A DNA stretch of 64,000 nt from a virus, in the IMG/VR virus record IMGVR_UViG_3300033388_000874, positions 639-64,638 of that record, one strand, 5' to 3'. Under the pieces are notes generated by a model. That model did no database searches and had not been told where the DNA came from. It saw nothing but the letters and a program-made list of their open reading frames with translations. Position numbers and translations under genes: made by a program. Numbering within the stretch: the stretch's first letter is position 1; each line of letters opens with the position of its first letter. Positions 32,064 through 55,157 of this stretch are shown piece after piece.

Positions 32064-32265
32064 CTGTCTTCTCCTCTGCGACTCTCCCAGAGTACGGATT
32101 GCCGTATGTCGCGTAATGGACTTGACACAGCAGTAAGTCCTCCCCCCATGCCCTTTCTTCACATCCTTTCATTCTACATTTCATTTCGATACGTGCCTCT
32201 TGTGTAGGTACATTGCCAAAACCGCACCCAGCCCACCGCCTGTTCCGATGGTCAGCGCGAACCAT
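32056..32265 (-). CDS. small Cys-rich (zinc-finger-like) early protein ending in KTDE
   Basis: 69 aa; Cys at 14, 30, 35, 47 plus His; C-terminal '...AEEKTDE*' inside the conserved junction. Confidence 0.4.
   Translation of the reverse strand: MVRADHRNRRWAGCGFGNVPTQEARIEMKCRMKGCEERAWGEDLLLCQVHYATYGNPYSGRVAEEKTDE
32057..32074. repeat. conserved 18-bp gene-junction repeat, copy 3
   Basis: identical 18-mer, 214 bp from copy 2. Confidence 0.6.
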
Positions 32266-32453
32266 AGTAGTTCGACGTTAATACCCTGAATCGCTTTGTG
32301 CGCGACGAGAGAGATAATGAATACCTCAGTCGTCGCCATTAGATAGCTGATCGGCATGATCCACTTGTAGTGCATGAAGGCGACGTTGCGCTGCTGGAAC
32401 GCCTTGAAGAACACGAATATAAAATACGCAACTCCTGCGATTAGCTCATTCAT
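32181..32453 (-). CDS. small integral membrane protein
   Basis: 90 aa with three hydrophobic helices; 8-nt overlap with the primase gene end. Confidence 0.4.
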   Translation of the reverse strand: MNELIAGVAYFIFVFFKAFQQRNVAFMHYKWIMPISYLMATTEVFIISLVAHKAIQGINVELLWFALTIGTGGGLGAVLAMYLHKRHVSK

Positions 32454-40488: not shown

Positions 40489-42342
40489 TCACTTCGCGTC
40501 TCCATAGGTTTGACCCCACGCTGCCTCTGCATCAATCGGTAGATCAGGTGCAAAGCTAGGCGGGGTTTTCATTATCTGTAGCACACCGCGTTCGTATTCC
40601 TCAACGCGATTCTCAGGCACAACATACACCAACTCATCATGCGCTTGCAACGCTGGCCGTAGACCGAGTTCCTTGCGAACTCGTATCATATGTTCTGTAA
40701 TTGTAATGCGAGCGAGACTCTGGACAATGTTCTCCACCATCTTCCCACCCCATAAAGTTTTGGGTCGTTCGGCGTGTGTGAATGACCAGCCACGATACTT
40801 CTTCGTGTCTATGTAACGTAGGTTGTGGTACCAGATAGCCATGCCGTTGGGTAGGGTCAGCCGATCATGCGTAGCCATGCATGGCCCGATCATCGCCATT
40901 GCCTCTCCTGTCGCCATCTGCTCGATGACACCATCACAGTACTTCCACATGGCAGGGATTTGGTGGTACTCGTCACGGTAAGCGTACACATATTTGTTGA
41001 CCTCTTGCTGGTCTGCTTTGTATCCATCCTTACGTAACGTCGCTTGTAGCTTCTTCCACCCCATGCCATAGCCAAGGCCGAGGATGCAGGTCTTTCCGAT
41101 GAACCGCTCAGTCTGGTCTGCTTTCGTAACAGGGCGACGGAACGCTTTGGATGCGAAGGCGCAGTATGGGTCGCCGCCAGTCTGGAAGACTTCTAACAGG
41201 GGTTTGCAATTCGATAGCCAAGCATTCAGCCGAGCCTCGATCTGTGACAAGTCACTCGCGAGTACCACGTACCCATCCGGTGCGGCGACTGCGTACCTTA
41301 GTTGATCCCTGCTTGGGTTCTTCGGGTCAACGCGGGTGAGGTTTTGGCAGTTGATCTTTTCCATGCCACCGTAGCGGCCTGTGTGAGCGCCGTAGTAGCG
41401 CAGGGGCACCCGAAGTGATCCATACTGCTCAGCAATGTCAATAAATCGCATGGTGCGGCTCTCAGTCAGCGTGGACTTGGTTCCAAGCCTTGCTGCTAGG
41501 ATAGGCCCGACCAGCGGATCGTCTTGGTATTCTTCCTCCATGTCCTTGAACTCGGGGTCAGTCTTGGCGAATGCATATGCAGGTTTCAGGGTTGTGGGGC
41601 TGATCTTCATGGGCACATCAACGCCCAATGCCTCCAGCACCTTTGCAAACTTCGGATTGGAACTCAGTTGGGACTGGTTCACTGAAGGTGGTAGTGCCGC
41701 GAGCAGTGCTTTCTTTTTCTCACGTGCGTTATGAAGTACGTTCCTAAGTATGTCGATGTCCAACACGAACTGCGGCTGTATATACATGCGCAGAGTCATG
41801 TCGATGATCCAATACTCGTCTTTCGGCAGACGTTCCTTTAGGCGATTGAATAGCCACCACTCCCCATCGCAGTCATCCGCACAGTATGCTGCGTACTTCT
41901 GGAACTCCTGCGGTGTCAGCGATTCGAGTCGCCTCCCGAGCATATTGCCAACGTACGTACCCTTCGACAGCGGAGAAGACTCGTGTACCAAACACTTCGC
42001 GAGCGATATCGACCGATGAAATGGTTTCAGTGTTGCCTGTGCCATGCACAGAGTATCGAAAAGCATCAGCGGTATGATCCCCAAGACAGTCTCTAGGATC
42101 AAAGCATCGAACATCGTATTGTGGCACAACACCGCTCCACGGTGAACGCCCCTTGCTTCCAAGGCTTGCTTGTATTCTGCGTGTGTCGTAAAGCTCAATA
42201 TCTCGGTAGGGTCGTCGTTCTTCTTCACTCCCACCATGATAATTTGAAATTGCGCGTCTGAAACGTAAGCCTCGGTACTCATCTTTGACAGCGAGTAAAT
42301 CTTGCTGTAGTAAGTCTCGAAGTCGATAGTAAATACGTCCAC
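40489..42342 (-). CDS. family A DNA polymerase with 3'-5' exonuclease domain
   Basis: 617 aa; Exo I 'FTIDFETY'; motif B 'RFIGKTCILGLGYGMGWKKL'; motif C 'LQAHDELVYVV'; GTG start. Confidence 0.85.
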   Translation of the reverse strand: MDVFTIDFETYYSKIYSLSKMSTEAYVSDAQFQIIMVGVKKNDDPTEILSFTTHAEYKQALEARGVHRGAVLCHNTMFDALILETVLGIIPLMLFDTLCMAQATLKPFHRSISLAKCLVHESSPLSKGTYVGNMLGRRLESLTPQEFQKYAAYCADDCDGEWWLFNRLKERLPKDEYWIIDMTLRMYIQPQFVLDIDILRNVLHNAREKKKALLAALPPSVNQSQLSSNPKFAKVLEALGVDVPMKISPTTLKPAYAFAKTDPEFKDMEEEYQDDPLVGPILAARLGTKSTLTESRTMRFIDIAEQYGSLRVPLRYYGAHTGRYGGMEKINCQNLTRVDPKNPSRDQLRYAVAAPDGYVVLASDLSQIEARLNAWLSNCKPLLEVFQTGGDPYCAFASKAFRRPVTKADQTERFIGKTCILGLGYGMGWKKLQATLRKDGYKADQQEVNKYVYAYRDEYHQIPAMWKYCDGVIEQMATGEAMAMIGPCMATHDRLTLPNGMAIWYHNLRYIDTKKYRGWSFTHAERPKTLWGGKMVENIVQSLARITITEHMIRVRKELGLRPALQAHDELVYVVPENRVEEYERGVLQIMKTPPSFAPDLPIDAEAAWGQTYGDAK

Positions 42343-42358
42343 GATAGTAAATACGTCC
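42323..42358. repeat. tandem 18-bp direct duplication at the DNA polymerase start
   Basis: plus strand CGATAGTAAATACGTCC(A/C) x2; minus GGACGTATTTACTATCGT x2, duplicating the first six DNAP codons (VDVFTI) in frame. Confidence 0.5.
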
Positions 42359-42359
42359 C

Positions 42360-42536: not shown

Positions 42537-42575
42537 GCTACACCTCTCGGTACGTGCTGATGATAACGGTCTGCC

Positions 42576-42944
42576 TCATGGGTGGTATGCCCCGCTGATG
42601 CAGTGAAGTAGTTCGTGGCCGAGTGCGTCCATTGCCGGATCACCTAACACCTGTTCCGGTAGCGTTGCGGTGATGAGGCACCAAGAGAAATTGTTGTCGA
42701 AGTCTGGTGTGTACTCTGCGTACGCCTCATACCCATCGGGCATGTCATCCTTATCGATGAAGTTCACCATGACTATGGAACCTCGCAGGAAGTATTCGGC
42801 TATGACCGGGGGGCCGTAGGGTTCGTAACACACTTGGTCAGAGGGGGGCGCGGGATCAGTGGTCATCCACTTCATAAGCCCATAAGAAAGGCCAGCACCA
42901 GTGAATAGTACTAGCCAGAAAACTACCGTCGCCAACCTTGTCAT
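42576..42944 (-). CDS. membrane-anchored HExxH metallopeptidase-like protein
   Basis: 122 aa; N-terminal TM/signal 'LATVVFWLVLFTGAGLSYGL'; C-terminal 'LGHELLHCISGAYHP'; preceded by palindromic motif copy 1 and a sigma70-like promoter. Confidence 0.4.
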   Translation of the reverse strand: MTRLATVVFWLVLFTGAGLSYGLMKWMTTDPAPPSDQVCYEPYGPPVIAEYFLRGSIVMVNFIDKDDMPDGYEAYAEYTPDFDNNFSWCLITATLPEQVLGDPAMDALGHELLHCISGAYHP

Positions 42945-42954
42945 AGTGTCGCCT

Positions 42955-42969
42955 TTACAACCGTTGTAA
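42955..42969. repeat. palindromic motif copy 1 (TTACAAC-C-GTTGTAA on plus)
   Basis: directly downstream of the -10 of a TTGACT-16nt-TAAGAT promoter (43005..42978, minus) and 10 nt before AAGGCGA-ATG of 42576..42944. Confidence 0.6.
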
Positions 42970-42977
42970 GATGGGCC

Positions 42978-43005
42978 ATCTTAGCACACTGATAAGTAGA
43001 GTCAA
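42978..43005 (-). promoter_or_regulatory. sigma70-like promoter (minus strand)
   Basis: TTGACT (43005..43000), 16-nt spacer, TAAGAT (42983..42978); palindromic motif starts about +2. Confidence 0.35.
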
Positions 43006-43059
43006 CCTACGTTTTGGGTGCCTAAACGAAGGGTATAACCTGCACCTATAGACAATAAA

Positions 43060-43092
43060 AAACCCCGACCAGCATTGCGCCAGCCGGGGTAC
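43060..43092 (-). terminator. putative rho-independent terminator (minus strand)
   Basis: minus-strand CCCCGGCTGG...CTGGTCGGGG imperfect GC stem followed by TTTTTT(ATT). Confidence 0.4.
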
Positions 43093-43107
43093 TTACAACC
43101 GTTGTAA
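43093..43107. repeat. palindromic motif copy 2
   Basis: between the stop of 43111..43908 and the minus-strand terminator hairpin. Confidence 0.6.
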
Positions 43108-43110
43108 GTT

Positions 43111-43908
43111 TTAGTTGGTATGGACAGAGGGGTATCCGTCCACGTGCCGCACTTCAATCATCATGCTCATTTGTACGAGTATGTGAGTAAGCGCCTCGAA
43201 GACACGTCGCTCGAATACTAATTCCTCTGGGGTTTGGTCTTCGTGTCGTGGTTCGAGGGAGAGGAACTGATCGACAGTACCCCAATCGGATATACGTGTT
43301 GGCATTCTAGACTTCATGTTTGCCTGACGCGCTACGTCGCGGCACTCGACAGGCATGAAGGCCATCAACTCAGGCCAGATTCTCATCAGTTGTCCGGGCG
43401 TGTTACAGGCTATTCCGGGTGTCGGGCCTCCACGCCGACCTCCCGTTGTGCTGTTAAAGCCTGCATAGTCATCCCACTCCCAATCGAATAGGTCATCAAC
43501 GCGCTTATACAACTTCTTCCGTAGCTTCTTTAGCTTGATCGCCTTACATACCCATGCTTGGATATTCTCTTGCACATCGACATGCAACTGTGCGAACTCC
43601 ACCGGGATATCAGGTCTTCGCTTACCATCGGGGAAACCGAACGTAATGTGATCCCGCTCCCATGTCGATCTGCCTTTCTTATCGTCTGTGAACAACTCGA
43701 ACGAGTCGCTACGGCTCAGACATTTCCGACCCAACTTACTATCCAATAGTACCTCAAGTGAGTTCCACTGTTTCTTTTTGAACGCGGGTCGATAGACATC
43801 TTCCAACGCATCAAACTTAACAGGATTTACAATCTCACAGTACTTGTCGAAGTGTCGGCAGACTTGGTTGGCAATGCGACTGCGGAAGTCCCGATTAAAG
43901 CGCGTCAT
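43111..43908 (-). CDS. hypothetical protein
   Basis: 265-aa ORF followed by a hairpin + T-run terminator on the minus strand. Confidence 0.4.
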   Translation of the reverse strand: MTRFNRDFRSRIANQVCRHFDKYCEIVNPVKFDALEDVYRPAFKKKQWNSLEVLLDSKLGRKCLSRSDSFELFTDDKKGRSTWERDHITFGFPDGKRRPDIPVEFAQLHVDVQENIQAWVCKAIKLKKLRKKLYKRVDDLFDWEWDDYAGFNSTTGGRRGGPTPGIACNTPGQLMRIWPELMAFMPVECRDVARQANMKSRMPTRISDWGTVDQFLSLEPRHEDQTPEELVFERRVFEALTHILVQMSMMIEVRHVDGYPSVHTN

Positions 43909-45166
43909 CGATCAAATCCACTTCAATAATCTCGCCCGGTATGTCGTGACTTGGGCGATAGTCTGTCGTTGCACACCATATGACTGGAAAGTCTGCATCT
44001 GTCGGGAAGCTACCGCCCATGTCTGTGAAGTACACCAGACAATCAGGACGTAGCCCATGTTCCTCAAGCCACACGAACGGTGGAATGAATGACGTACCTC
44101 CGCCACCTCCCAACGAACATAGCTCCGGTTGACCACGTAACGTGTCACCGCTTCCCAACTCATGCACAGTATCTACACGTGCATCGCATCCCATCAGGTA
44201 AACGAACTCCGGGTTGCAGTCAGTCAGAATCTTGTCACACTCAGTTAGTCCTTGTGCGATCTCCATCTGTGACATGCTTCCCGATGTATCAACTACGAAT
44301 ACAACCACTCCGCAACCAAAGCCTTTGTAGCTCGGCATGATAACGCCTTGGGTGATGTACCTTCGACGATTGAGCTTGCTCCAGTCACTCGCATCCCTGC
44401 CTATAGCCTTGGTGAATGCGTACCGTAGTTTCTCCGTCCACGGAATCTTCGGCTTAAGTAATTCATCGACGAATCTCTCAAGTCCCGCTGGCATTTTACC
44501 CATTGCCTTGGCAGCGTCTCCCGCTGTTTTGACAGCACGTTTCCATTCGACTTCACTACCAGTATTGGCAGCACTAGGCATAACGTGTGTGTCAAGCGTA
44601 CCGTCACCCTGTCCTTCCGGGCCTTGGTTGTTGTGACCACCCCCACCATCGCCCTGACCTTGACCTTCGGCATCGCCCTCACCGCCGCCACCTTCCTGCT
44701 GTTGCTTGAGTAGCTTACGGTACACTTCGTCAACCATGTCACCAGCCGATGCGATACTTACATCGTGCAAGCCCAGCTTCGGCATCTTACCAATCCTCGA
44801 CACAACTAACATATCGTTGATTACATAGTCACCAGCTTGGTTCCATAGACGCGGGTCAAACTTCTTACCATCGAACCCTGTGTCCTGATACTTCTTGCCA
44901 CGTGACATATGTGACCACATTGCGTGACCAACTTCGTGGCACATGACAAACACCGCTTCAGGCAGTTTGAGTGATTCGATGAAGTCCTCATCGATCCACA
45001 CGTTCTTACCGTCCGTCGCCATAGTCTCGTTACCCGGTGGAAATATCTGTGGGAACTTACCGAGCTTTATGACCATCATGTCCAGAAGTAACGATGCAAA
45101 GAATGGGCAATGCAAAAGCATCGCCGTCTTACACTCAGTTAGTTTCTGCTGTGCCGACATTTGCAT
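43895..45166 (-). CDS. vWA domain protein with N-terminal metallopeptidase-like domain (DUF2201-type MoxR partner)
   Basis: 423 aa; 'VFVMCHEVGHAMWSH' HExxH; MIDAS 'VVFVVDTSGSMS'; Gly/Gln-rich linker; standard partner of MoxR AAA+ ATPases. Confidence 0.65.
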   Translation of the reverse strand: MQMSAQQKLTECKTAMLLHCPFFASLLLDMMVIKLGKFPQIFPPGNETMATDGKNVWIDEDFIESLKLPEAVFVMCHEVGHAMWSHMSRGKKYQDTGFDGKKFDPRLWNQAGDYVINDMLVVSRIGKMPKLGLHDVSIASAGDMVDEVYRKLLKQQQEGGGGEGDAEGQGQGDGGGGHNNQGPEGQGDGTLDTHVMPSAANTGSEVEWKRAVKTAGDAAKAMGKMPAGLERFVDELLKPKIPWTEKLRYAFTKAIGRDASDWSKLNRRRYITQGVIMPSYKGFGCGVVVFVVDTSGSMSQMEIAQGLTECDKILTDCNPEFVYLMGCDARVDTVHELGSGDTLRGQPELCSLGGGGGTSFIPPFVWLEEHGLRPDCLVYFTDMGGSFPTDADFPVIWCATTDYRPSHDIPGEIIEVDLIDDAL

Positions 45167-46439
45167 ACTCCTTCATCATGCCAAAGATAGCAGTTGCCTG
45201 TTCACCCAACCGCCTACGGAGTGCGTCGTCCTTACGCACATCTTTTACGTCATGGTTGGTGAGCTTACCCTTCACTCGCAGACGTATAGCCTCGATCCGC
45301 TCGTCCTTTGTGACGTTAAGATGAGACAGCATCGACGCATGCTCTGCCAACTTATCGAACAGAGTGTAGTGGAACATTGCGTCCGGGTTTGATAACGCCG
45401 TTGCAGCACGTTCAACATCGTCATACAGACGTTGCCAAGCATCCTGCATTGCATTTTCCAACCGCTTCTGCGTCTTGCGTTGCAATGCACCAGCTAACTT
45501 CTCAACCTGTGCATCCTGCAAGCCCTGATAGTCACCGCCGACAGGTATCGGCTCAAAGTCAAACTCCAACGTGAAGTGTTGCTCAATCGCAGCGGGGGCA
45601 GGATACTCATTCTGATTGAATGCCTTTCCTAACTTCTGTTGCGAGATAGCGATCAGCGTTGGGTATGCTGTCGTGAACTTATCAAGCGACTCAAGCATTT
45701 CGACCTTGTGCATGCCCATTATCTGCGCGTACTCAAAGAACAGTGTGTTCGGAAGTAGCCGAGCGCCGGAACGCTTGCCGTGATCGTTGATCCCAACGGT
45801 TGACCACGGAAGGGTCATCCGGTAGTGATCGGTACGAGCAGCATCGATAGCTTTATGCACACGTTTCAGTTTCTCGTCGGCACCGACAAGCAATCTCTTG
45901 CGCGCCTCGAATGACTTAGCATCTGCACCGCTGGCATCCGCAGCATCCTTCGCTGCTTTGCGATCCTTAACCTTCGCATGCCACCTTCTATTCGTGAGTG
46001 ACACAAGAGTACCGAAGTTACGTATGTCCATCTCCTCCATAATCTCCTCACTCGTGAACGTAGGTACCGGAACGATATGCTCCTCAACAGCTTCACTGAA
46101 CATGGTGTTGTCGATCTCAGGAAGATCAGCCGCGTTTACAACGGTTGTAAGTTCCTGTTCCTCGATAGCACTGATCGCCTCGGGTGTCGCAGCAACTACC
46201 GCCGCCGTTTCCTCATTGAGTAACGATTCAAGGGTTGCATTGCTACTTGGTACAGGTGGTGATAACGGTCGCGACACTGGACTATTCGGGTAGCTAGGGT
46301 CGGGCGCACCTTCGACCTGTGGGGTTTCAGGGGTGTCGGGTGCTATAGCACTAGGTGCTACAGTTTCCTCTACCACTGGCTCTTTATCTTGCAATACGTC
46401 ATCGAGTAATGACTGTATATCCATGTCAAATCCTGACAT
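45135..46439 (-). CDS. hypothetical protein with acidic, Pro-rich N-terminal region
   Basis: 434-aa ORF between the vWA and MoxR genes; contains motif copy 3 in frame (ELTTVVNAADL). Confidence 0.4.
   Translation of the reverse strand: MSGFDMDIQSLLDDVLQDKEPVVEETVAPSAIAPDTPETPQVEGAPDPSYPNSPVSRPLSPPVPSSNATLESLLNEETAAVVAATPEAISAIEEQELTTVVNAADLPEIDNTMFSEAVEEHIVPVPTFTSEEIMEEMDIRNFGTLVSLTNRRWHAKVKDRKAAKDAADASGADAKSFEARKRLLVGADEKLKRVHKAIDAARTDHYRMTLPWSTVGINDHGKRSGARLLPNTLFFEYAQIMGMHKVEMLESLDKFTTAYPTLIAISQQKLGKAFNQNEYPAPAAIEQHFTLEFDFEPIPVGGDYQGLQDAQVEKLAGALQRKTQKRLENAMQDAWQRLYDDVERAATALSNPDAMFHYTLFDKLAEHASMLSHLNVTKDERIEAIRLRVKGKLTNHDVKDVRKDDALRRRLGEQATAIFGMMKEYANVGTAETN
46135..46149. repeat. palindromic motif copy 3 (inside ORF 45135..46439, in frame as TTVV)
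   Basis: exact TTACAACGGTTGTAA. Confidence 0.6.
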
Positions 46440-46450
46440 ATGTTTCTCCT

Positions 46451-47521
46451 TTACATGCTCGAAAGCAAGTTAGCGTTCACGATGAGTGCCTTGTTCTCTT
46501 TAACCCACTTGGCAAAGTCCTGATTGTTCAGAACTTGGGGCTGACGTTTCAATGTTGCCTTGAGTCCAGCTACCTGAAATTCTTCTGGCATACGTTTCAG
46601 ATAATTGAACGCGGGTGCTGCCGTACCACCGTCGACACGATGCGCGATCATTTGCATAGTTGCGAACTGTGCATCGGGTCGATCAGTCTCAGGTAGTTTG
46701 CAGCCCTTCGGATCAGCTACGATTTCATCAAAGGTTGGCAGTTGCTCAACCACTCGCAGGAATGATGTAAACTCTGCTGCTGCACCTTCACCGATGTACC
46801 CTGCTGCTGCCTCAGTGAACAAGTCACTAGGTAGTTGCTCAATCAGGTAGGACATTTGCACGAACGAACGTGGTGTGCAGAATGGCCCGGCCTTCTCGGG
46901 TACTGTGTCTTGGAATACCAGACCGGGCTTGTGCTTCGCGAATGCAATCGCTGCCCAATGGATATCCCCTTTACGTTCGGCCCAGTCCACCCAACTATCC
47001 AAGTCAGGCGTAATGGTGATTAGCATACGTCTGTTGGTAACGAACATGAGTTCACGTTGCACACCCGAGCGATCCTTCTCTCGGTTAGATGCTGCGAGTA
47101 CCATGTACGTGATTGGAAGCCATGAGTCATTCACCCTACCTTTCAGTAGTAACTCTGCGGCTGGCTTTTGCACATCATGTGCTGATTGCCGAAACTCATC
47201 CAAGAAGATGAACCCATGATCGGGATCGCCAGATCGCGGCATCCACGGCGCACGTGTGTAGTTCATAATCTTATTGCCTTCCTCATCCGAACCCGGTAGT
47301 CCGAAGCCGCCCATGTCGGGTGCCTCCTTACTGTTGAGAAAGAAGTCTTTGTTGGCGAAGGGCAATTCCATTTCCTCGCCCAACTCAACTGCCAACTGAT
47401 CCACCATTTCTGACTTACCAAGTCCCGGCCCGGATTCCAACTCAATGGTGAATCGGTTTCCTGTCTTAACTTGCTGGTGGTACGTTGACTTAATCAACTG
47501 CTTTGCTTGCATGATATTCAT
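46451..47521 (-). CDS. MoxR-like AAA+ ATPase
   Basis: ATG at 47521 after GAGGAAA and palindromic motif copy 4 (track extends to 47563 through the motif); Walker A 'ESGPGLGKSE', Walker B 'FIFLDEF'. Confidence 0.65.
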   Translation of the reverse strand: MNIMQAKQLIKSTYHQQVKTGNRFTIELESGPGLGKSEMVDQLAVELGEEMELPFANKDFFLNSKEAPDMGGFGLPGSDEEGNKIMNYTRAPWMPRSGDPDHGFIFLDEFRQSAHDVQKPAAELLLKGRVNDSWLPITYMVLAASNREKDRSGVQRELMFVTNRRMLITITPDLDSWVDWAERKGDIHWAAIAFAKHKPGLVFQDTVPEKAGPFCTPRSFVQMSYLIEQLPSDLFTEAAAGYIGEGAAAEFTSFLRVVEQLPTFDEIVADPKGCKLPETDRPDAQFATMQMIAHRVDGGTAAPAFNYLKRMPEEFQVAGLKATLKRQPQVLNNQDFAKWVKENKALIVNANLLSSM

Positions 47522-47940
47522 ACTGTTTCCTCGTTTACAACGGTTGTAAGATCGACCATGCACACCGTATCTTCTGGTGCGCCAATGGCCGAATGATAAC
47601 GCTGATACTTATCAGCAAATGTGCTTCCCTGAATGATGTAAATCATGCCGGGAAAGTTCTCTTGTATACGTATCCAAGCTGCGCTCTCGATACACGTATC
47701 TTCATCCTCCATCGTTCGCAGTAATAGACAAATCCTATCCGTCACTTCACCTTCGTTACGCATGAAATACACCTGATGTTCTCCTTCGACAATCACGAAT
47801 CTCATGTTGGTATGTTCTAGTTGGTGGCGGGTTCCTTCACCGTAATGCAAGAACTCCCAATCACACTTGTCAACGGGTGCTGCAAAACATACGGTGCTAT
47901 TCTCGGGCTGATTAACCCTTTGGTCTGGGTACAGAATCAT
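47518..47940 (-). CDS. hypothetical protein
   Basis: ATG at 47940 preceded by AAAAGGAGG (track start 48036); C-terminus '...DLTTVVNEETV*' reads through motif copy 4; ATGA overlap with the MoxR start. Confidence 0.4.
   Translation of the reverse strand: MILYPDQRVNQPENSTVCFAAPVDKCDWEFLHYGEGTRHQLEHTNMRFVIVEGEHQVYFMRNEGEVTDRICLLLRTMEDEDTCIESAAWIRIQENFPGMIYIIQGSTFADKYQRYHSAIGAPEDTVCMVDLTTVVNEETV
47535..47549. repeat. palindromic motif copy 4
   Basis: followed on the minus strand by ACGAGGAAACAGT-ATG (MoxR start). Confidence 0.6.
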
Positions 47941-48047
47941 GCGACCTCCTTTTACGCTCAATCGATGCGTATGCGCGACGCTGCTTACGGTTAGTGGGAA
48001 AGTGTTTCTCATTCCCAATTGCGGATACGTCCCCAAAAAAGAAACGC

Positions 48048-48326
48048 CTAATCTTCTTCCAGAATTTCATTGACTACTCCGTGTTTTTCCGCTGTCTCAT
48101 CGAATCCAATGAGCGTAATGATTGGGAAGAATTCCCTGAACAGAAACAGGTGCGACATATAATTTGCACCCATGAGTCTCATAGCCTTAACTGCTAGGTT
48201 CCAGTCCTCCAAGTTGCCTAGCTGTTTGGCAAGGTCTTCTGCCGCTGCCATGATAAAAAAGATATTGCCATCTGGCCCGGTAACGTCCAGACACAACCCT
48301 AACTGCGAGTCTCTATACACGGCCAT
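48048..48326 (-). CDS. hypothetical small protein
   Basis: 92-aa ORF, same strand and tight spacing in the early operon. Confidence 0.35.
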   Translation of the reverse strand: MAVYRDSQLGLCLDVTGPDGNIFFIMAAAEDLAKQLGNLEDWNLAVKAMRLMGANYMSHLFLFREFFPIITLIGFDETAEKHGVVNEILEED

Positions 48327-48335
48327 GATAACGGC

Positions 48336-48620
48336 CTACGCGAACAATGCAGGGACTATGAATGCATCCTCCGCTATTTCGCAGTCAAGTATTCCCTCCG
48401 CGAGTACGGTAGCTGGCCCATCCTTCGACCAATGTGGCAACATCACCACGCGGAATCGTTGGAATTCCTCGTCATCCATCAATCGCTGAAACACCTGCGT
48501 CTGAACGCGGCCATTCCAACTAGCCGCCTCCACCTGCAAGCCCGAGTCTTTCGATCCACCGCGAGTAACTTGCTTACTTCCATTACCCTGTAGCGAACCA
48601 TAGAAAGTCATCTTACCCAT
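48336..48620 (-). CDS. hypothetical small protein
   Basis: 94-aa ORF. Confidence 0.35.
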   Translation of the reverse strand: MGKMTFYGSLQGNGSKQVTRGGSKDSGLQVEAASWNGRVQTQVFQRLMDDEEFQRFRVVMLPHWSKDGPATVLAEGILDCEIAEDAFIVPALFA

Positions 48621-48783
48621 TCTGTTCTCCTTCCAGTTTCATGCCCCAAACATCACGCCAGTACTCATCGTTGTATTCGATTTGCACTGGTTGTCGGGCG
48701 TTAGATTGTGGTTCCCACTCAAGTGTGTCGATGGTGGGGTCTGCCGTGTTGTAAGGGTCGGTTCCTTTTGTGTTGTCTGACAT
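48613..48783 (-). CDS. hypothetical small protein
   Basis: ATG at 48783 6 nt after AAGGAGA, directly downstream of motif copy 5 (track extends to 48843 through the motif). Confidence 0.35.
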   Translation of the reverse strand: MSDNTKGTDPYNTADPTIDTLEWEPQSNARQPVQIEYNDEYWRDVWGMKLEGEQNG

Positions 48784-48794
48784 TCCTGTCTCCT

Positions 48795-48809
48795 TTACAA
48801 CGGTTGTAA
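48795..48809. repeat. palindromic motif copy 5
   Basis: TAG stop, motif, AGGAGACAGGA, ATG. Confidence 0.6.
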
Positions 48810-49082
48810 CTATTTGATGCCGACTCCCATGCAGTCCCACCAAGCTAGGTTGGGTACATATGAATTAGAAGCAGCGTCCCATTCGCCGAGATCATGCGAC
48901 TCATTCAAGTGCGCACACTTCTGTACCAAAGTCTGTTGGGGTGTGGGGGGTGCGGTGATAACGCTTTCGCCCTTGGCTGTTTGGATCAGTGCTACCACGA
49001 TCACTATATATAGCAGCGCAAGGCATGATAGGGACAGAGCTACCAGTCCCAACTCCATTTGCCTACGTATGTTACGGCGCAT
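48810..49082 (-). CDS. small membrane protein
   Basis: 90 aa; 'LVALSLSCLALLYIVIVVALI' TM helix; stop TAG immediately followed by motif copy 5. Confidence 0.4.
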   Translation of the reverse strand: MRRNIRRQMELGLVALSLSCLALLYIVIVVALIQTAKGESVITAPPTPQQTLVQKCAHLNESHDLGEWDAASNSYVPNLAWWDCMGVGIK

Positions 49083-49362
49083 AGTTATTCTCCTGTGCCT
49101 CGATTAACTCCTGCAACTTCGTTGTGAAGCCCGGATCGTTAGTGGAAAAGATGATGCTTTTATTGAACATCGTCTCGCGGTTCTTCTGCCATGCGTAGGC
49201 AACTCGTTGTGCAGAGTCGGCGGGCAAGGGTGCGTTGTTCCGCATCCAATGATCGCCTATGTAACAGGTGTGTCCAATGAATTGGAGTGCTGCTTGCAAC
49301 TCATCGTATGCCTGCTCAACGTCCTGTGTGTCTACGCACATACGTACACTAAACTCAATCAT
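49072..49362 (-). CDS. hypothetical small protein
   Basis: 96-aa ORF. Confidence 0.35.
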   Translation of the reverse strand: MIEFSVRMCVDTQDVEQAYDELQAALQFIGHTCYIGDHWMRNNAPLPADSAQRVAYAWQKNRETMFNKSIIFSTNDPGFTTKLQELIEAQENNYAP

Positions 49363-49577
49363 GGTAGTTCCTTATGTCAGAGAAATGATTGCCAACACGA
49401 TTGTCATGGTGGCAAGGATGCGGCGGTTGTCCGGGTGTCCAGCCCGGATCGTGTATGCCAGAATGGTAAGAAAGAAAGCGCCAAAGAATGCGACGCTGGT
49501 GATAACGCTAAAGGTCACGGTGACGCCCATCTAACTGATCGCCGCCTGAATTTCAGGGGTCAATTCTCGTTCTTTAT

Positions 49578-49841
49578 TCATGAAGTCTCCTTAATCGTCC
49601 AATCGAGGCCGGGGTACTGTCTCTCAACCTCGTGCATGGCCTCCTTCGTAGCTTGTTGCTCGGTACGGTTCATAATTTTCCATCTACCAACTATGGCCTC
49701 GCCGTCGTAAACCTCAACACGCCAATTCATGCGCATGTCATCTGTGAACACAATTGTCACACGTGGATCAGCTTGAGACTCGTCGTCGTACTCGGCAGTT
49801 TTAACTGTTCTGCCAACAATATCGCTGATGAACTTCTTCAT
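49578..49841 (-). CDS. hypothetical small protein
   Basis: 87 aa; motif copy 6 then AAGGAGA, 6 nt, ATG. Confidence 0.4.
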   Translation of the reverse strand: MKKFISDIVGRTVKTAEYDDESQADPRVTIVFTDDMRMNWRVEVYDGEAIVGRWKIMNRTEQQATKEAMHEVERQYPGLDWTIKETS

Positions 49842-50152
49842 TCGTCTATCTCCTTTACAACGGTTGTAAGATATGCCTTGCCATCACTGTGATACCAAGA
49901 CATGAATCGAGCATAGAATCTGTGCCCAGCCCCATTACCTTTCGGGGGCGTGTTGCCTGTGATTGATTGCATCCACCACTCAATAACCTCCATTTTGTAT
50001 AGCGCGGCCTTTGCCCAATTCTCAGGCTCTGGCCCATGCACTAGGAGACACATGATATATTTAGGCTCACGCCGGGTGCGTTTTTGCTTTCGGGACTTTC
50101 GACTGGCGTTGCTTGGCATTCCAGTTCTCCTTGCACCAGTGCATGTACTCAC
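49838..50152 (-). CDS. hypothetical small protein
   Basis: 104 aa; C-terminus '...AYLTTVVKEIDE*' reads through motif copy 6; ATGA overlap. Confidence 0.35.
   Translation of the reverse strand: MSTCTGARRTGMPSNASRKSRKQKRTRREPKYIMCLLVHGPEPENWAKAALYKMEVIEWWMQSITGNTPPKGNGAGHRFYARFMSWYHSDGKAYLTTVVKEIDE
49855..49869. repeat. palindromic motif copy 6
   Basis: motif, AGGAGATAGACGA, ATG. Confidence 0.6.
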
Positions 50153-50366
50153 CGTATAGCCCCTGATGTGGGTTGTGTTCCAGTTCGCCCATCATGTCCT
50201 TGATGCGCATACCGTAGTTGACATTCTTCGCGACGTACCTTCGTTGTGCATCCAATCCAGCGTGTAAGATCGGGGGGATTGGGGGTTCGCCGAACATGAG
50301 TAGTAGCGTTACGAATAGAATCTCTGCATCTTCTACTCGGCCACCATTGTATTGCTTGTTGTTCAT
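50067..50366 (-). CDS. hypothetical small protein
   Basis: ATG at 50366 in ATGA overlap with the upstream stop (track extends to 50432). Confidence 0.3.
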   Translation of the reverse strand: MNNKQYNGGRVEDAEILFVTLLLMFGEPPIPPILHAGLDAQRRYVAKNVNYGMRIKDMMGELEHNPHQGLYGEYMHWCKENWNAKQRQSKVPKAKTHPA

Positions 50367-50908
50367 TGCATTTGCCTCGCATACGTGCGCGTGATAACGC
50401 CGTGTCGCTGTTCGTATTGCCACCTGTGCCAAGCGAAATAGAATTTGAGGAACTGTGCTGCCTGATTTCTAAACGTAGTGATCCCACGCTTAAGGCACCA
50501 CTCACGAACGTCTTGCTTCCAGAACATATGTTCCCTCTCAATCTCATCACCCAACGAATAGTTCCTGCCACGTCGGGCAAGCACGTATTCCTCCCAGCGC
50601 GGGAGTTCACCGAAGCGCACCATGCATTCAGTACATATGCTGTCTAATGCAGGGTAGGTGAACCCTTCCCGCCATTTGCTATACACATGATTCTTGCGAC
50701 GGACATATTTCTCTACTGCGTATCTCTCTTTCAGTGCCTTCTTCACGTTCTGCCCTCCATAACATCCGGTCAATACTTGTCGATAGGGCGTCGACTGCTG
50801 TGCGTAACGCATTCGATCCCGCTTTCCATCCATAGCGATCAACCAAGTAGCTGCTGACCACGCGATACCATTCGTTTGAATCACTCCACGGTGCGCATGG
50901 CCCTGCAA
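50363..50908 (-). CDS. hypothetical protein (start uncertain; conflicts with 50679..51050)
   Basis: 181-aa ORF (TTG start in track; first ATG at 50833); aromatic/basic composition typical of a globular protein. Confidence 0.3.
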   Translation of the reverse strand: MQGHAHRGVIQTNGIAWSAATWLIAMDGKRDRMRYAQQSTPYRQVLTGCYGGQNVKKALKERYAVEKYVRRKNHVYSKWREGFTYPALDSICTECMVRFGELPRWEEYVLARRGRNYSLGDEIEREHMFWKQDVREWCLKRGITTFRNQAAQFLKFYFAWHRWQYEQRHGVITRTYARQMQ

Positions 50909-50989
50909 CCAGCAAGACCTCCATCACTATGTCGGGAGAGTCCCGCTCTAGCAGTCTCCAAACTGCCGAGCGGTATTGCTCTCGGTTCA

Positions 50990-51277
50990 CTACTGTTGCC
51001 GCATGCGAGCGCGTGATAACGCTTCGTCGTAGGTAGCGCGGGATATACACTGCGCGCCGCTACGCCCGACTGATCTGTCCTCTATCCAGACGCCATTGTT
51101 TGATAGACATGATGCTTTCGCCTCACGTGCATCAAGCCTCGCATAGTGAGACTCCCACTGCGCGTCGGTATTCGGGGTTGTCGAACACCCAGACTCGGCG
51201 CTAAGTACGGCTATCGCCAAGACGATCATCAAGACCACTGTCCAGATACTTCTTTCGTCTTTCCTTTCCATTACCAT
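50990..51277 (-). CDS. secreted/membrane-anchored small protein
   Basis: 95 aa; 'WTVVLMIVLAIAVLSAESGCSTT' signal-peptide-like N-terminus. Confidence 0.4.
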   Translation of the reverse strand: MVMERKDERSIWTVVLMIVLAIAVLSAESGCSTTPNTDAQWESHYARLDAREAKASCLSNNGVWIEDRSVGRSGAQCISRATYDEALSRARMRQQ

Positions 51278-51504
51278 TCTCCTTCGTCTGATTCATATGT
51301 CTCAAACGCTAACTCGCTGACGCAAGTCCATCGCTCACCACCCACTGATTTCAACCTGCCGCCGCCATACTTCACAACCATAGCAGTCTGACCATCTGGA
51401 CAGACTATTCGGTTCGGCGTTGGCGAGAACGAGTTCTCACGTGTGTGGCTCGTATTTGCACAGCCTGCCATGATTAGCAGGCACAAGATCACAATCATCT
51501 TCAT
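51271..51504 (-). CDS. small lipoprotein
   Basis: ATG at 51504 after motif copy 7 + CAGGAG; 'MKMIVILCLLIMAGCANTSH' signal peptide with lipobox-like MAGC (track extends to 51642 through the motif). Confidence 0.45.
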   Translation of the reverse strand: MKMIVILCLLIMAGCANTSHTRENSFSPTPNRIVCPDGQTAMVVKYGGGRLKSVGGERWTCVSELAFETYESDEGEW

Positions 51505-51516
51505 TTCATACTCCTG

Positions 51517-51531
51517 TTTACAACGGTTGTA
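51517..51531. repeat. palindromic motif copy 7
   Basis: motif, ACAGGAGTATGAA, ATG (lipoprotein). Confidence 0.6.
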
Positions 51532-51559
51532 AGGTGTTGGGTTGTTAGGCGACGCAAGG

Positions 51560-51961
51560 CTACACCCATTCTCCATAGCGCCGCATTGAATGATACGCCG
51601 CACGTGATGCCGGTGTATCGTGTTTGGTAAGTACGTATGCAAGTGGCTTGTATAGCTCGGCCTCCAGCATCACCTGCCAAGGCATATGCTGACAGGTGAA
51701 ACCCTGCGCGCTCCCAAGCATCCAATCTTTGAGGTCTATAAGCTGCGATGATAACGGTGACTCTGCCTTGAGGCAGTAGTCTATGGCGTTAAGCAAGGCT
51801 ACCTTGAGCGCGAGGTATTTCTCATGCTGATGTGCTGCTCCACTAAAGGATATGTGGTAATAGCTGCTGATGTACTGCGAATGACCGGGATAAGACTGGT
51901 CTGTGTATCGCGGATGTAAGTCCGGGTTTGAAAGTTGCTGTTTGGAAGTTACGGTACTCAT
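51560..51961 (-). CDS. hypothetical protein
   Basis: 133 aa; motif copy 8 + CAGGAG upstream. Confidence 0.4.
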   Translation of the reverse strand: MSTVTSKQQLSNPDLHPRYTDQSYPGHSQYISSYYHISFSGAAHQHEKYLALKVALLNAIDYCLKAESPLSSQLIDLKDWMLGSAQGFTCQHMPWQVMLEAELYKPLAYVLTKHDTPASRAAYHSMRRYGEWV

Positions 51962-51978
51962 TACTTTGGTACTCCTGT

Positions 51979-51993
51979 TTACAACGGTTGTAA
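51979..51993. repeat. palindromic motif copy 8
   Basis: motif, ACAGGAGTACCAAAGTA, ATG. Confidence 0.6.
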
Positions 51994-52027
51994 GATTAAA
52001 GGTTTGAAATCGTGCGTGTCAAAGCTG

Positions 52028-52320
52028 TTTGGACAATCAGGCCAATCACTCGTATGGTTTGGTGAATGACTATCCTTTAGGATTAGATACTTACATGTGA
52101 ATGTCTGAATGTCCAGCGTTTTAAAATCAGGGACAAGTTAGGGAGTGGGGATGTTGGGTCGTTCGTAAAAACGCAAACATGTTCACTCTCAAGAAATCTC
52201 TATAAGGTTCTACCTTATATAAGTGAGACATTCAGACATTCATATATATATACACGTAATCTATAGGGTTTCCACTGTCAGACCACTGTCCGATTGTCCA
52301 AATCCGTTCTGGACATTCAC
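52028..52320. repeat. nested inverted repeats / iteron-like GACATTC repeats in a 500-bp non-coding region (candidate origin or control region)
   Basis: TTGGACAATC (52028-37) vs GATTGTCCAA (52291-300); GAATGTCTGAATGTC (52098-112) vs GACATTCAGACATTC (52226-240); third GACATTC at 52311-17; CATATATATATAC AT tract at 52240-52252; CCACTGTC x2 at 52271-89. Confidence 0.5.
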
Positions 52321-52500
52321 TTTAGTGCCTACAGTACGCGCTTATGATAACGGTTCTGCCTAAAGCCCCACATAATGACGTACTTTGAAAGTTGCTGTTT
52401 GGAACCTGACATACTGTGATCCTGTTGGGATTTGGGGTTCTCGCTACACGTGTAGGCAAATGAAAGCCGGGCGAACCCGGCAATCATTCTGTCCTGCATG

Positions 52501-53025
52501 TTACAGATTGTACTCGGCAACCAGTACGTTAAGCGCCTTGCGGAACTTAATGATCTTCTGGCTACGTGTTTCAATCAACTTGATCGCAGACAACGCACGT
52601 TCCAAAGCCTTTTCAGGACTTACAACGGTTGTAACTTTCTTGGCCTTGATCGACTTGATTACTGCGGCAACGGCATCCTTCCAACTTTCGTGCTTGGGTA
52701 ATGCGCGAGCCAACATCAAGACATGCGTACGGCGAAGCTCGCCGAAAGTCTTGCGGAACGCAGTGGTCGCTTCGCCGAAGTAATAAGGGTATGCAATCAA
52801 GCAAGCCTTAATCTCGGACTTCCGAGCGCCTTCCGAGCTAGTACCCTTCCACGGCGCGTCTGCGGCAACATCCGTCTGTACGTTAGCAATTTGCTCGGCA
52901 GTCATATCATCGCCACCAAAGGTTGCGGTGCATGCTTCCACTAAGCCTGACACCATCTGTTGCATGGTGATCGCAGTCTGTGAATCCAGCTTGCGAATGG
53001 AACTAACAATTGACTTGATACTCAT
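52501..53025 (-). CDS. first gene of the minus-strand early operon, hypothetical protein
   Basis: ATG at 53025 after motif copy 10 + GAGGAG (track extends to 53085); contains motif copy 9 in frame (KKVTTVVSPEK). Confidence 0.4.
   Translation of the reverse strand: MSIKSIVSSIRKLDSQTAITMQQMVSGLVEACTATFGGDDMTAEQIANVQTDVAADAPWKGTSSEGARKSEIKACLIAYPYYFGEATTAFRKTFGELRRTHVLMLARALPKHESWKDAVAAVIKSIKAKKVTTVVSPEKALERALSAIKLIETRSQKIIKFRKALNVLVAEYNL
52620..52634. repeat. palindromic motif copy 9 (inside ORF 52501..53025, in frame as TTVV)
   Basis: exact TTACAACGGTTGTAA. Confidence 0.6.
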
Positions 53026-53039
53026 GTGTCTAACTCCTC

Positions 53040-53054
53040 TTACAACGGTTGTAA
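53040..53054. repeat. palindromic motif copy 10
   Basis: motif, GAGGAGTTAGACAC, ATG of the first early gene. Confidence 0.6.
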
Positions 53055-53354
53055 GATTAGGTGGGCAGTGCGCCCGACCCTTCATAGTACGCGAGGATGG
53101 AAGCGTGTCGGGCCGAAGGGGGTGCGGTACCGGGCCGAGGGGGGCCGGGGGGCCAGCACCGTATTAGGTAGTTCATATACAACATCCCACTAATATAGCG
53201 TGTGCTTTTAACACCCATGTCTCATATCTTGTGCAATTGAGTGGGGAACTGCCCGAAGTATAAAGCATCCATATTTCCCTATACGGCAATACAACTGAGT
53301 ATTTAACCTTGTTTTATCCGGCCACAATTCAAGTTTCCCGGCCAAAAATACCCC

Positions 53355-53383
53355 TTGCCAAAACTGAGCTAGTGTGCGTTAAT
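53355..53383 (+). promoter_or_regulatory. sigma70-like promoter for the plus-strand operon
   Basis: TTGCCA, 17 nt, (TGc)GTTAAT with extended -10 TG; about 35 nt upstream of the 53421 start. Confidence 0.3.
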
Positions 53384-53420
53384 GCCCCACACCCCAACAA
53401 CTCACAATGGAGATCGATCA

Positions 53421-54442: not shown

Positions 54443-54996
54443 TGGCATGGCTAAACAGCTTACTGACCAACTTTGCGGAAGCGTTCAAGTGGTTTTACAT
54501 CTTACAGCCGTGGGAGCAGGCGTTGCGCGTGAGATGTGGGAAGCATATCCGATTACACGCAGGCGGTTTGCATTTCAAAGTGCCGTACATCGACTTCATA
54601 TTCAAACAAAATACGCGACTAAGAATTTCGGATGTACCTGCTCAAACTATTACAACTTTAGACGCTCGAACTATAACTCTGTCGGGAGCTTTGCAATATC
54701 GTGTTGCCGACATTACACCGCTTTTTACGAAGTTACACATGGCGGAAAGCACGATAGCTCAAGAGTGTCAAGCGATTTTAACGGAGTATATCGCTTGGAA
54801 CGACTTCAGCCAATGCAGTCCGAAAGACGTAATGCTAAACGTGCAAAGAGAACTCAATTTGGAGAGGTACGGCCTCGCTGATGTTCGCTTCATACTTAAA
54901 GATTTCGCGGTTGTGAAAACGTACCGCTTCATTACTGGAGACATGGATACCTATTTGGATCACAGTCTCCAAACAGACGAACCGGAGGAAATGTAA
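54442..54996 (+). CDS. SPFH/band-7 (stomatin/prohibitin-like) domain protein
   Basis: 184 aa; 'HAGGLHFKVPYIDFIFKQNTRLRISDVPAQTITTLDARTITLSGALQYRVADI' matches the SPFH core (PG.hf.iPfid.v....R......p.q..T.D...v.v...v.yrv.D). Confidence 0.5.
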   Translation: MAWLNSLLTNFAEAFKWFYILQPWEQALRVRCGKHIRLHAGGLHFKVPYIDFIFKQNTRLRISDVPAQTITTLDARTITLSGALQYRVADITPLFTKLHMAESTIAQECQAILTEYIAWNDFSQCSPKDVMLNVQRELNLERYGLADVRFILKDFAVVKTYRFITGDMDTYLDHSLQTDEPEEM

Positions 54997-55157
54997 TGCC
55001 TAGACCAAAAAGCGATAATGTTCGCGCTCACGTGATGATGACGCAAAGTCAGCATGCGCGTATGCAAACACTATCAGCAAAAAGCGGGTACTCAATCTCG
55101 GAGCTAATGCGCCGAGCCATCGACTTGTATCTTACGAAGACTAAGAAAGATGGCTAA
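54996..55157 (+). CDS. ribbon-helix-helix (Arc/MetJ/CopG-like) DNA-binding protein, 53 aa (below the ORF-track cutoff)
   Basis: TAATG overlap with the SPFH stop; 'VRAHVMMTQSQHARMQTLSAKSGYSISELMRRAIDLYL' = beta-strand + helix A + helix B of an RHH fold. Confidence 0.5.
   Translation: MPRPKSDNVRAHVMMTQSQHARMQTLSAKSGYSISELMRRAIDLYLTKTKKDG

Follow-up and report, generated by a model that had tools for sequence, protein, structure and literature searches.

A composite iteron and AT-tract element separating genes 1 and 2 of the early operon in an uncultured tailed phage, a candidate replication origin and control region

What is a long, repeat-bearing, non-coding gap doing between the first and second genes of a phage early operon? 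The genome that raises this question belongs to an uncultured tailed phage of ~64.6 kb, of which the window (by which we mean the whole 64-kb stretch of DNA analysed here) represents approximately the entire length, and its genes are arranged in two blocks of opposite orientation. The plus-strand block encodes the large terminase, an SU10-type portal, internal virion and tail proteins, and a 2676-aa DarB-like protein. In the minus-strand block ~20 small early genes come first, and after them lie the genes of a MoxR-like ATPase, a DUF2201/VWA protein, a family-A DNA polymerase, a PD-(D/E)XK nuclease, an SNF2 helicase and a 965-aa primase-helicase. No lysogeny genes were seen in the phage, and a scan for tRNA and tmRNA genes returned none. 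The genomic features needed to place the gap are as follows.

~53.4 to 64 kb and 1 to 30 kb, plus strand: plus-strand gene block
53025 down to ~30 kb, minus strand: minus-strand gene block
54996-55157: gene of a ribbon-helix-helix protein
52501-53025, minus strand: g1, which opens the leftward early operon (174 aa, all-alpha; start set from homologues) and the conserved upstream neighbour of the element
51962-52500: non-coding gap between the g1 stop and the g2 start
51560-51961, minus strand: g2, the downstream neighbour (133 aa)
32446-35343, minus strand: fused primase and DUF927 helicase (965 aa), proposed trans-acting initiator

That some 500 bp inside the early operon hold no credible ORF, as an initial annotation of this DNA had put forward, is borne out by a gap of 539 bp between operon genes 1 and 2, in which the ORFs are 21-56 aa long and show no conservation of frame or position across eight relatives. 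A coding reading was dropped on the grounds that no ORF is common in frame and position to the eight genomes, and it is also countered by indels of 1-2 nt that interrupt the most conserved block. The repeats had likewise been described correctly. The first inverted repeat joins TTTGGACAATC (52028-52038) to its exact complement at 52292-52302, the starts of the 10-mers being 263 bp apart; the second joins GAATGTCTGAATGTC (52099-52113) to its exact complement at 52227-52241, 128 bp start to start, and can be extended to 22 nt with 91% complementarity. A third GACATTC, a tandem pair of CCACTGTC (starts 52272 and 52283) and the AT tract CATATATATATAC (52241-52253) are all present. The one element of the description that has to be given up is the setting "inside a replication module": the neighbours of the gap are small early genes, and the replication genes lie down the operon at distances of ~4.4 kb (the ATPase) to 17-20 kb (the primase-helicase). 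No initiator signature was found in either g1 or g2, the latter being a protein without a Pfam or PHROG family match. The cumulative GC skew has its minimum at ~52-54 kb, which is weak evidence of an origin because it is confounded with the switch in gene orientation.

Are the repeats retained in related genomes? GenBank phages gave no DNA match to the region (megablast and sensitive blastn) and none to g1 (tblastn). Among isolates, Pseudomonas phage Rollin and the Rhizobium RHph_TM phages come nearest (their primase-helicases are ~27% identical to that of the window), and no equivalent element was obvious in Rollin, the closest cultured phage (27% helicase identity). Related loci were instead obtained by three routes, namely terminase and g1 probes, a DNA pattern derived from a conserved block, and contigs encoding g1 homologues. 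The resulting alignment of the gap holds eight full-length and several partial copies and extends over its whole length, with a mean column identity of 64%, and the g1 proteins of the aligned genomes are ~40-86% identical to that of the window. In more distant relatives, in which g1 identity goes down to 24%, there are traces of the element. The repeats are thus not private to one genome: the layout recurs in eight or more related phages from metagenomes. Followed along early transcription, it starts with a terminator, a C-rich motif and a repeat of the first codons of g2; continues with a near-invariant block ending in CGTTATCAT..GCGCGTAC, heptamer set A, an AT tract and an opposed set B; and ends with a core of ~110 nt, set C, an AT-leaning spacer, set D, the palindrome TTACAACCGTTGTAA, a ribosome-binding site and g2. 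In the window the individual parts are the following.

52456-52481, minus strand: intrinsic terminator after g1, from a terminator scan, GCCGGGTTCGCCCGGC then TTTCATTTGC
52423-52437, minus strand: C-rich motif CCCCAAATCCCAACA, one of six CCCMAMAYCCC in the window
52384-52404: copy 2 of a 21-nt exact direct repeat, TTTGAAAGTTGCTGTTTGGAA
51927-51947: copy 1 of the same 21-nt repeat, inside g2 codons 5-12; relatives have a looser direct repeat at both corresponding places
52334-52373, minus strand: most conserved block, sense ATGTGGGGCTTTAGGCAGAACCGTTATCATAAGCGCGTAC
52344-52352: CGTTATCAY copy within the invariant block
52272-52320: set A, with CACTGTC twice and GATTGTC (plus strand, 52273-52298) and GACATTC (52312-52318) in the opposite orientation
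52241-52265: AT tract between sets A and B, CATATATATATACACGTAATCTATA, candidate DNA unwinding element
52227-52241: set B, GACATTCAGACATTC, in the opposite direction to set A across the AT tract
52114-52226: conserved 113-nt core between sets B and C, sense ..GGTAGAAC..GAGAGTG..CCCAACATCCCCACTCCCTAACTTGTCCCTG..
52099-52113: set C, GAATGTCTGAATGTC, the exact inverse of set B
52039-52098: variable AT-leaning spacer between sets C and D
52028-52038: set D, TTTGGACAATC, the inverse of GATTGTCCAAA in set A
51979-51993: 15-bp palindrome TTACAACGGTTGTAA, directly upstream of the g2 ribosome-binding site

Several of these parts were absent from the initial annotation, namely the terminator, the invariant block with its polar motif and the second pair of iteron sets, as well as the conserved 113-nt core and the palindrome common to 10 early-gene starts. 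The missed parts point to a composite element.

The concentration of heptamers in the gap is exceptional for this genome. GAATGTC occurs 11 times in the window, and five of those copies are crowded into 220 bp here; under a relaxed pattern there are nine sites in 300 bp here versus three at most in any other 300-bp window (Poisson probability 1.5e-9 per window), and an unbiased scan for locally repeated 7-mers ranked the gap first. Strict matching finds 4-8 sites in seven relatives, plus degenerate copies, and in L034 the heptamers are barely recognisable. Each of the eight aligned genomes has a homologue of set A (columns 224-275). Seven of the eight keep the four sets in the same order and orientation, the exception being L031, where set D is flipped, and they do so even where the flanking protein is only ~40% identical; set D of L025, like that of L030, copies set B in direct orientation. 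The heptamer itself is uniform across all the sets of any one genome and differs between genomes: it is GAATGTC in the window and L027, CAATGTC in L001, L022, L025 and L030, and CATTGTC in L031. Judged from the aligned sequences, this concerted change is the behaviour expected of sites that would be co-evolving with a binding protein.

These observations also bear on the idea that the gap is non-functional debris, consisting of a decayed partial duplicate of g2 and chance repeats. The interval 52330-52440 does resemble a shortened 5' end of g2, having an RBS-like AGGA, an ATG, the 21-nt repeat and then CGTTATCAT, in an arrangement comparable to that of g2, which carries copy 1 of the repeat and a further CGTTATCAT at codon 68. 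Debris of this kind, however, does not account for a layout that is kept across genomes whose flanking protein is 24-86% identical, for invariant blocks, for heptamers that change in concert or for statistics that are far beyond chance, and we regard it as extremely improbable.

What lies between the opposed sets is equally distinctive. Duplex stabilities from nearest-neighbour energies identify the AT tract and its surroundings as the weakest point of the 64 kb at lengths of 30, 50 and 100 bp (z 4.0-4.9), and in each of nine related loci no 50-mer is less stable than the homologous tract. In the distant relatives L013, L012, L016, L018 and L006 the least stable 50-mer is found in the corresponding early region, where it adjoins a g1 homologue or a copy of CGTTATCAY (e.g., at 1575 in L013). 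Sets A (three sites) and B (two sites) flank the tract in opposite orientations in the window; the same opposed flanking is found with the strict pattern in L001, L022 and L031, and in L025, L027 and L030 once degenerate copies are counted. The fourth least stable 50-mer of the window is the segment 52063-52112. No second iteron/AT cluster was found beside the helicase gene, where the DNA is occupied by small paralogous genes, or in the other non-coding gaps. On inspection by eye, the consensus sites for DnaA, IHF, Fur, LexA, NtcA and sigma-54 fitted neither the invariant block nor the AT tract. The element has no DnaA box, TTATCATAA and TTATCATCA being two to three mismatches from the consensus.

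Which protein might recognize such sites? The 965-aa protein carries a DUF927 helicase domain (Pfam E 1.2e-17, 65 bits versus a cut-off of 22.6), and primase matches at its N-terminus are weak (RepB_primase at E 0.0026, below the cut-off, and a PHROG polymerase/primase at 1e-10). Under E 1e-3, phmmer matches only two PDB entries, SCCmec Cch (5DGK) and a pathogenicity-island protein (8TCH), at E 1.4e-5, and 5DGK is also the top Foldseek match (E 3e-8, with a low-confidence model of the C-terminal 406 residues), PriRep1 on DNA ranking lower. The last 134-184 residues are without a Pfam match; a distant homologue, P0026, carries the Cch HTH domain PF18662. The AF2 model of the C-terminus has a pLDDT of 46, with a terminal beta-beta-alpha-alpha-beta-beta unit at 54-79, and is poor because the word-based homologue search gave just two proteins. 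Origins used by the DUF927 family, as exemplified by SaPI Rep, consist of 6-12 short iterons and a roughly central AT-rich region, with two or more of the iterons on either side pointing in opposite directions, and the staphylococcal Rep is self-loading without helpers and recognizes its own iterons via a C-terminal winged-helix domain (PMC9371898).

The arrangement of sets A and B around the AT tract fits this description and nothing else in the genome does, for which reason we favour an origin. We place at about even the chance that the gap is a phage replication origin of the type used by self-loading primase-helicase initiators. Of the origin originally proposed for this locus, what stands is the conserved layout (at least eight phages), the concerted heptamers, the weakest duplex of the genome and a DUF927 helicase, and what falls is its location in a replication module. 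From that anatomy, its statistics and its conservation, together with the heptamer change and the helicase family, we infer that binding, melting and initiation would take place at the element. The heptamers, 7-8 bp in length, would be recognized by the C-terminal DNA-binding part of the 965-aa protein, and the opposed sets A and B would allow helicase rings to assemble on both sides and melt the AT tract. The first primers would be made by the N-terminal primase domain and extended by the family-A polymerase of the phage. The second opposed pair, C and D, around its meltable spacer, may be a second loading module or, alternatively, an operator, in which the iteron core TGGACA would double as a -35 box.

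How close is the likeness to the SaPI ori and to the SCCmec Cch system? The helicases belong to the same DUF927 family, and the fusion to a primase is as in PriRep. As in the SaPI ori, the iterons are short and number ~6-12 (nine relaxed sites here), an AT-rich centre has opposed iterons on both sides, and the iteron sequence is specific to each element (PMC9371898). There are also clear differences. The SaPI ori is immediately downstream of rep, whereas the phage element is 17-20 kb from the helicase gene and sits between early genes 1 and 2; SaPI iterons are 5-6 bp long and those of the phage 7-8 bp. The second opposed pair, the 113-nt core and the invariant CGTTATCAT..GCGCGTAC block are found in the phage only and have no SaPI counterpart. 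SaPI Rep has a C-terminal winged-helix domain, whereas the C-terminus of the phage helicase has no Pfam match and a low-confidence model. Finally, the SaPI is a satellite, and the carrier here is a ~64.6-kb phage in which no lysogeny genes were seen.

Similarities extend to other origins. In satellite phage P4 the ori and crr are bound by the alpha primase-helicase, and replication needs crr as a second, distant cluster. P4 ori resembles the phage element in having octamer-size direct and inverted iterons by AT-rich DNA and in the recognition of the iterons by a single initiator/helicase/primase protein, which for the phage is proposed; it differs in having two clusters (ori and crr) rather than the single one here, and its alpha helicase is of another family. 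Promoter-dependent origins offer a further parallel: the T7 primary origin and T4 oriF/oriG consist of a promoter followed by an unwinding element, and they share with the phage element a conserved promoter-like block upstream of an easily melted AT-rich stretch in the early region, but they lack iterons and depend on a defined phage promoter or a MotA-dependent one. The iteron theta origins (lambda ori, P1 oriR, R6K, RK2 and pSC101; reviewed in a paper cited in PMC7145576) have four or more iterons of 17-22 bp that are mostly direct. The phage element would share with them repeated initiator sites, an adjacent AT-rich unwinding element and inverted repeats that double as operators. Their iterons, however, stand beside the AT-rich element, whereas the phage sets stand around the AT tract, and they are usually in or next to the initiator gene with DnaA boxes, neither of which applies to the phage element.

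Not all of the conserved DNA is made up of heptamers. The 113-nt core has blocks conserved in the eight genomes (columns 328-432), without a conserved ORF in any of them, and within CGTTATCAT..GCGCGTAC 17 of the 19 columns are invariant in the eight. We conclude that the core and the invariant block are constrained for a reason other than that which governs the repeats, which behave as sites co-evolving with a protein. Could that reason be RNA? In such an explanation the element would be a structured RNA or a cis-acting RNA leader, in which a 19-bp helix of B with C closes a domain of ~113 nt. B and C are 93.9% complementary over the eight genomes, with nine of the 19 positions changed on both sides, a value that was reached in 0 of 500 shuffles and compares with 32-44% in slid controls. 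In single-sequence folding the core has a z of -2.1 in the sense orientation and of -3.5 in the antisense orientation, the latter being better than shuffles, and the C-rich motifs are strand-specific relative to transcription. Inside the B:C helix, however, the consensus fold is weak (-8.3 kcal/mol, covariation term -0.5) and the predicted pairs are nearly all invariant. There is no Rfam match at gathering thresholds (at E up to 10, two chance-level matches of 13-16 bits versus thresholds of 40), and the domain is not bracketed by a promoter and a terminator. Moreover, a single helix fails to explain why the heptamer unit is present in A and D, and why D is copied or flipped. That the unit recurs in A and D with one variant per genome leads us to consider that the repeats behave as binding sites co-evolving with a protein, as do the copied and flipped D, the weak inner fold, the lack of an Rfam match and the lack of an ORF. 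An RNA domain is therefore quite unlikely, and the small ncRNA that had been raised as an alternative to an origin finds neither an Rfam match nor a conserved internal fold.

Two further structures were considered and set aside. A plus-strand G-quadruplex in the core would have four G-runs in the window and L001 and three in L022 and L034, and is not conserved; a long-range pairing of CCCCAAATCCC with GGGGCTTTGGG is made up mostly of invariant 3-bp segments with mismatches and is an unconvincing helix.

A more elaborate form of the origin can also be envisaged, in which the element goes beyond the SaPI design and is bipartite, a type of origin so far undescribed, with two iteron-flanked melting modules (A-AT-B and C-spacer-D) that are coupled to dispersed punctuation motifs. 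The 113-nt core would then hold the modules in register, either bound by a host or phage factor or acting as RNA, and the polar CGTTATCAY motif and the 15-bp palindrome would coordinate early transcription with the start of replication across the clade. We consider this arrangement doubtful.

Does the gap govern transcription instead? A pure control region would supply promoters for the remaining early and middle genes, with the heptamers as operators of a phage regulator (g1, g2 or the ribbon-helix-helix protein) that switches promoters or blocks elongation. Support can be found first in the conserved intrinsic terminator directly upstream, a hairpin of six GC pairs with a 4-nt loop followed by TTTCATTTGC. 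It is kept in all eight relatives with differing stem sequences that still pair, and at each of four pairs both sides have changed in 1-3 sequences. With a terminator in this position, the downstream genes need a new promoter or antitermination. Candidate promoters exist: TGGACA matches five of the six bases of the -35 consensus, and in L022, L025, L027 and L030 that of set C is followed 16-18 bp on, within the C-D spacer, by a good TATnaT -10 box (scores of 9-10 out of 12). The window alone has a plus-strand TGGACA-17-TATGGT promoter-like site at set D (52030-52058). On the other side, the window, L001, L031 and L034 have a weak -10 box or none, and promoter-like sites in the window region are no more frequent than in shuffles; searching by eye for a sigma-70 promoter in the core or beside the invariant block gave only weak -10 candidates. 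The larger proteins tested include no phage RNA polymerase or sigma factor that might read CGTTATCAY, the small early proteins having been scanned in part, and the possibility of N4-like hairpin promoters served by a virion RNA polymerase was dropped, the 2676-aa protein being a DarB-like polyvalent protein and not a polymerase.

The region also holds two motifs that recur through the operon, and these add to the case for control. The palindrome TTACAAC(G/C)GTTGTAA has 10 exact copies, all in 42955-53054, versus 0.15 expected, and the one in the element is invariant in the eight genomes. CGTTATCAY has 16 copies versus 0.96 expected, 14 of them on the minus strand and 11 within 42560-52352; every copy in the early regions of relatives reads in the sense direction, also where the genome has no palindrome. 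The C-rich CCCMAMAYCCC is similarly polar, its six copies (0.25 expected) all being on the locally transcribed strand; the copy in the element is conserved at alignment columns 87-100. Contiguous direct or inverted repeats of 7-9 bp are the typical targets of ribbon-helix-helix repressors such as the omega protein of pSM19035, and the heptamer arrays resemble them. By form, the nearest analogy to CGTTATCAY is the stoperators of cluster A mycobacteriophages, which are likewise short, asymmetric and present in many copies in one orientation (PMC9283540, PMC6550527). Both are found in intergenic and in coding DNA, but stoperators are 13 bp long and CGTTATCAY 9 bp, and in the phage studied here no lysogeny genes were seen and no repressor was identified. 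A scan of a genome collection with the invariant block, in which CGTTATCAY lies, returned 18 matches, all of them chance ones without similarity to the region or g1, and hence neither a prophage copy nor a clue to the host.

What an operator array leaves unexplained is that the weakest duplex lies exactly between the opposed sets, and does so in every relative; in addition, ~500 bp with four sets is large for an operator. We therefore think that control of transcription as the sole function is possible but not probable. It is, however, compatible with an origin and does not exclude it. As a terminator precedes the AT tract and its heptamers, and a palindrome and a ribosome-binding site follow them, the same stretch punctuates early transcription too, and the element probably combines an origin with a control region of the early operon. 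This combination is the most economical reading.

One last function that short repeats might serve is packaging, and a genome terminus had indeed been mentioned as an alternative when the gap was first described. Arrays of short repeats surround the cleavage site at P1 pac and lambda cosB, and by analogy the gap could be a pac or cos site, or a terminal-repeat boundary, with its repeats bound by the terminase small subunit. The large terminase gene is only ~3 kb away, and the metagenomic contigs L024, L026 and L035 break inside or near the region. Breaks in assembly are, however, to be expected at repeats in any case, the contig ends of relatives are scattered with no common position, and a 65-kb contig of one relative ends ~1.7 kb past the region. 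The terminase genes also belong to the other, divergent transcription unit, and a terminus would be better placed in the divergent intergenic region 53086-53420, which has a conserved GC-rich element. As none of this agrees with relatives' contigs ending at the gap, we consider a role in packaging or as a terminus to be very unlikely.

We conclude that the element most likely belongs to the iteron/AT-tract class of origins, a familiar design in a new phage group, with some extra parts. Current ideas are not overturned by this, and its value therefore lies mainly in annotation and as a starting point for experiments. If our interpretation is true, it places a replication origin in an uncultured ~64.6-kb phage lineage without a close relative in GenBank, and it extends to a tailed phage, in which no lysogeny genes are seen, the DUF927 iteron/AT-tract design that has until now been characterised in staphylococcal satellites and SCCmec. 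The series GAATGTC/CAATGTC/CATTGTC would then offer a natural set of specificities with which to study site recognition by initiators of this kind, and the palindrome and CGTTATCAY suggest that there is an unstudied layer of early-gene control in these phages.

Three short motifs recur in the window, and the first of them, TTACAAC(G/C)GTTGTAA, is a perfect 15-bp palindrome of which there are 10 copies against an expectation of 0.15, all confined to the early region (42955-53054).

Copies of the 15-bp palindrome in the window
42955, 43093, 46136, 47535, 48795, 49855, 51518, 51979, 52620, 53040

Most copies have a ribosome-binding site directly downstream, relatives keep the palindrome at the same places, and one copy lies within the coding sequence of g1, the first gene of the leftward early operon, where it encodes the residues TTVV. 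The palindrome could serve as an operator, or it could act in the RNA as a hairpin, with 3 nt in the loop and a stem of 6-7 bp.

The second motif, CGTTATCAY, is 16-fold over-represented (16 sites in the window) and occurs in coding and non-coding DNA alike, with a strong strand bias: 14 of the 16 copies are on the minus strand, and 11 of these fall between 42560 and 52352. Across the early regions of relatives its orientation is invariably sense, and this extends to distant relatives that lack the palindrome, such as the L018 locus, which carries eight copies in 4.6 kb. Several copies are followed by GTA(C/T) 6-7 nt past the motif. By analogy, CGTTATCAY recalls in its form stoperators or a phage-specific promoter box.

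The third motif, the C-rich CCCMAMAYCCC, has six copies in the window (0.25 expected), all on the locally transcribed strand, and two of them are in the non-coding gap between g2 and g1 (51962-52500).

Copies of CCCMAMAYCCC in the window
39018, 48938, 52148, 52427, minus strand
53385, 58013, plus strand

The copy at 53385 is immediately 3' of a good sigma-70-like promoter for the rightward operon (TTGCCA-17-GTTAAT). This promoter lies within the region separating the divergent early and structural operons (53086-53420), where CCGACA-16-TACTAT is a likely leftward promoter. The same region contains a GC-rich element that is conserved, made up of CGGGCCGAAGGGGG and CGGGCCGAGGGGGG and then GGCCGGGGGGCC; after it comes the string GTATTAGGTAGTTCA(C/T)ATAC, conserved in all relatives. 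The region is a candidate terminus or packaging site, or a candidate regulatory region.

Within the gap, 52384-52404 is an exact 21-nt direct repeat of 51927-51947 (g2 codons 5-12), and the surrounding segment, 52330-52440, also has an AGGA resembling an RBS, a CGTTATCAT and, at 52412, an ATG. With these features the segment resembles the 5' part of g2 in shortened form. A looser version is retained in relatives. Gene conversion could account for the resemblance, or it could represent a shared target site. In the conserved core of the gap (52114-52226), about 26 nt (CCAACAACCCCACATCCCCT) present in locus L030 are missing from L029, a locus of the same clade from a second sample in which a 194-aa ORF was called across the region; the difference within the core may stem from assembly, or L029 may carry a natural deletion.

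Elsewhere, an 18-nt tandem duplication, CGATAGTAAATACGTCC(A/C) (42324-42359), extends across position 42342, where the DNA polymerase ORF starts. Just downstream of the primase-helicase gene, three tandem minus-strand genes of about 70 aa each (31631-32265) are a paralogous array, sharing their initial 19 nt (plus strand TCACTCATCTGTCTTCTCC) at a spacing of 211-214 bp. At 43895-47563, an ATPase (PHROG 1297) and a DUF2201 metallopeptidase/VWA-like protein are encoded close together, separated by a 434-aa protein that belongs to no known family, and such a MoxR/VWA-like pairing is unusual for a phage early-middle region.

The 2676-aa protein encoded at 19775-27805 matches LPD39 weakly, and its C-terminal part is DarB-like: several phages have proteins annotated as DarB-like antirestriction to which it is 22-30% identical. 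It is probably not a virion RNA polymerase but an injected polyvalent anti-defence protein.
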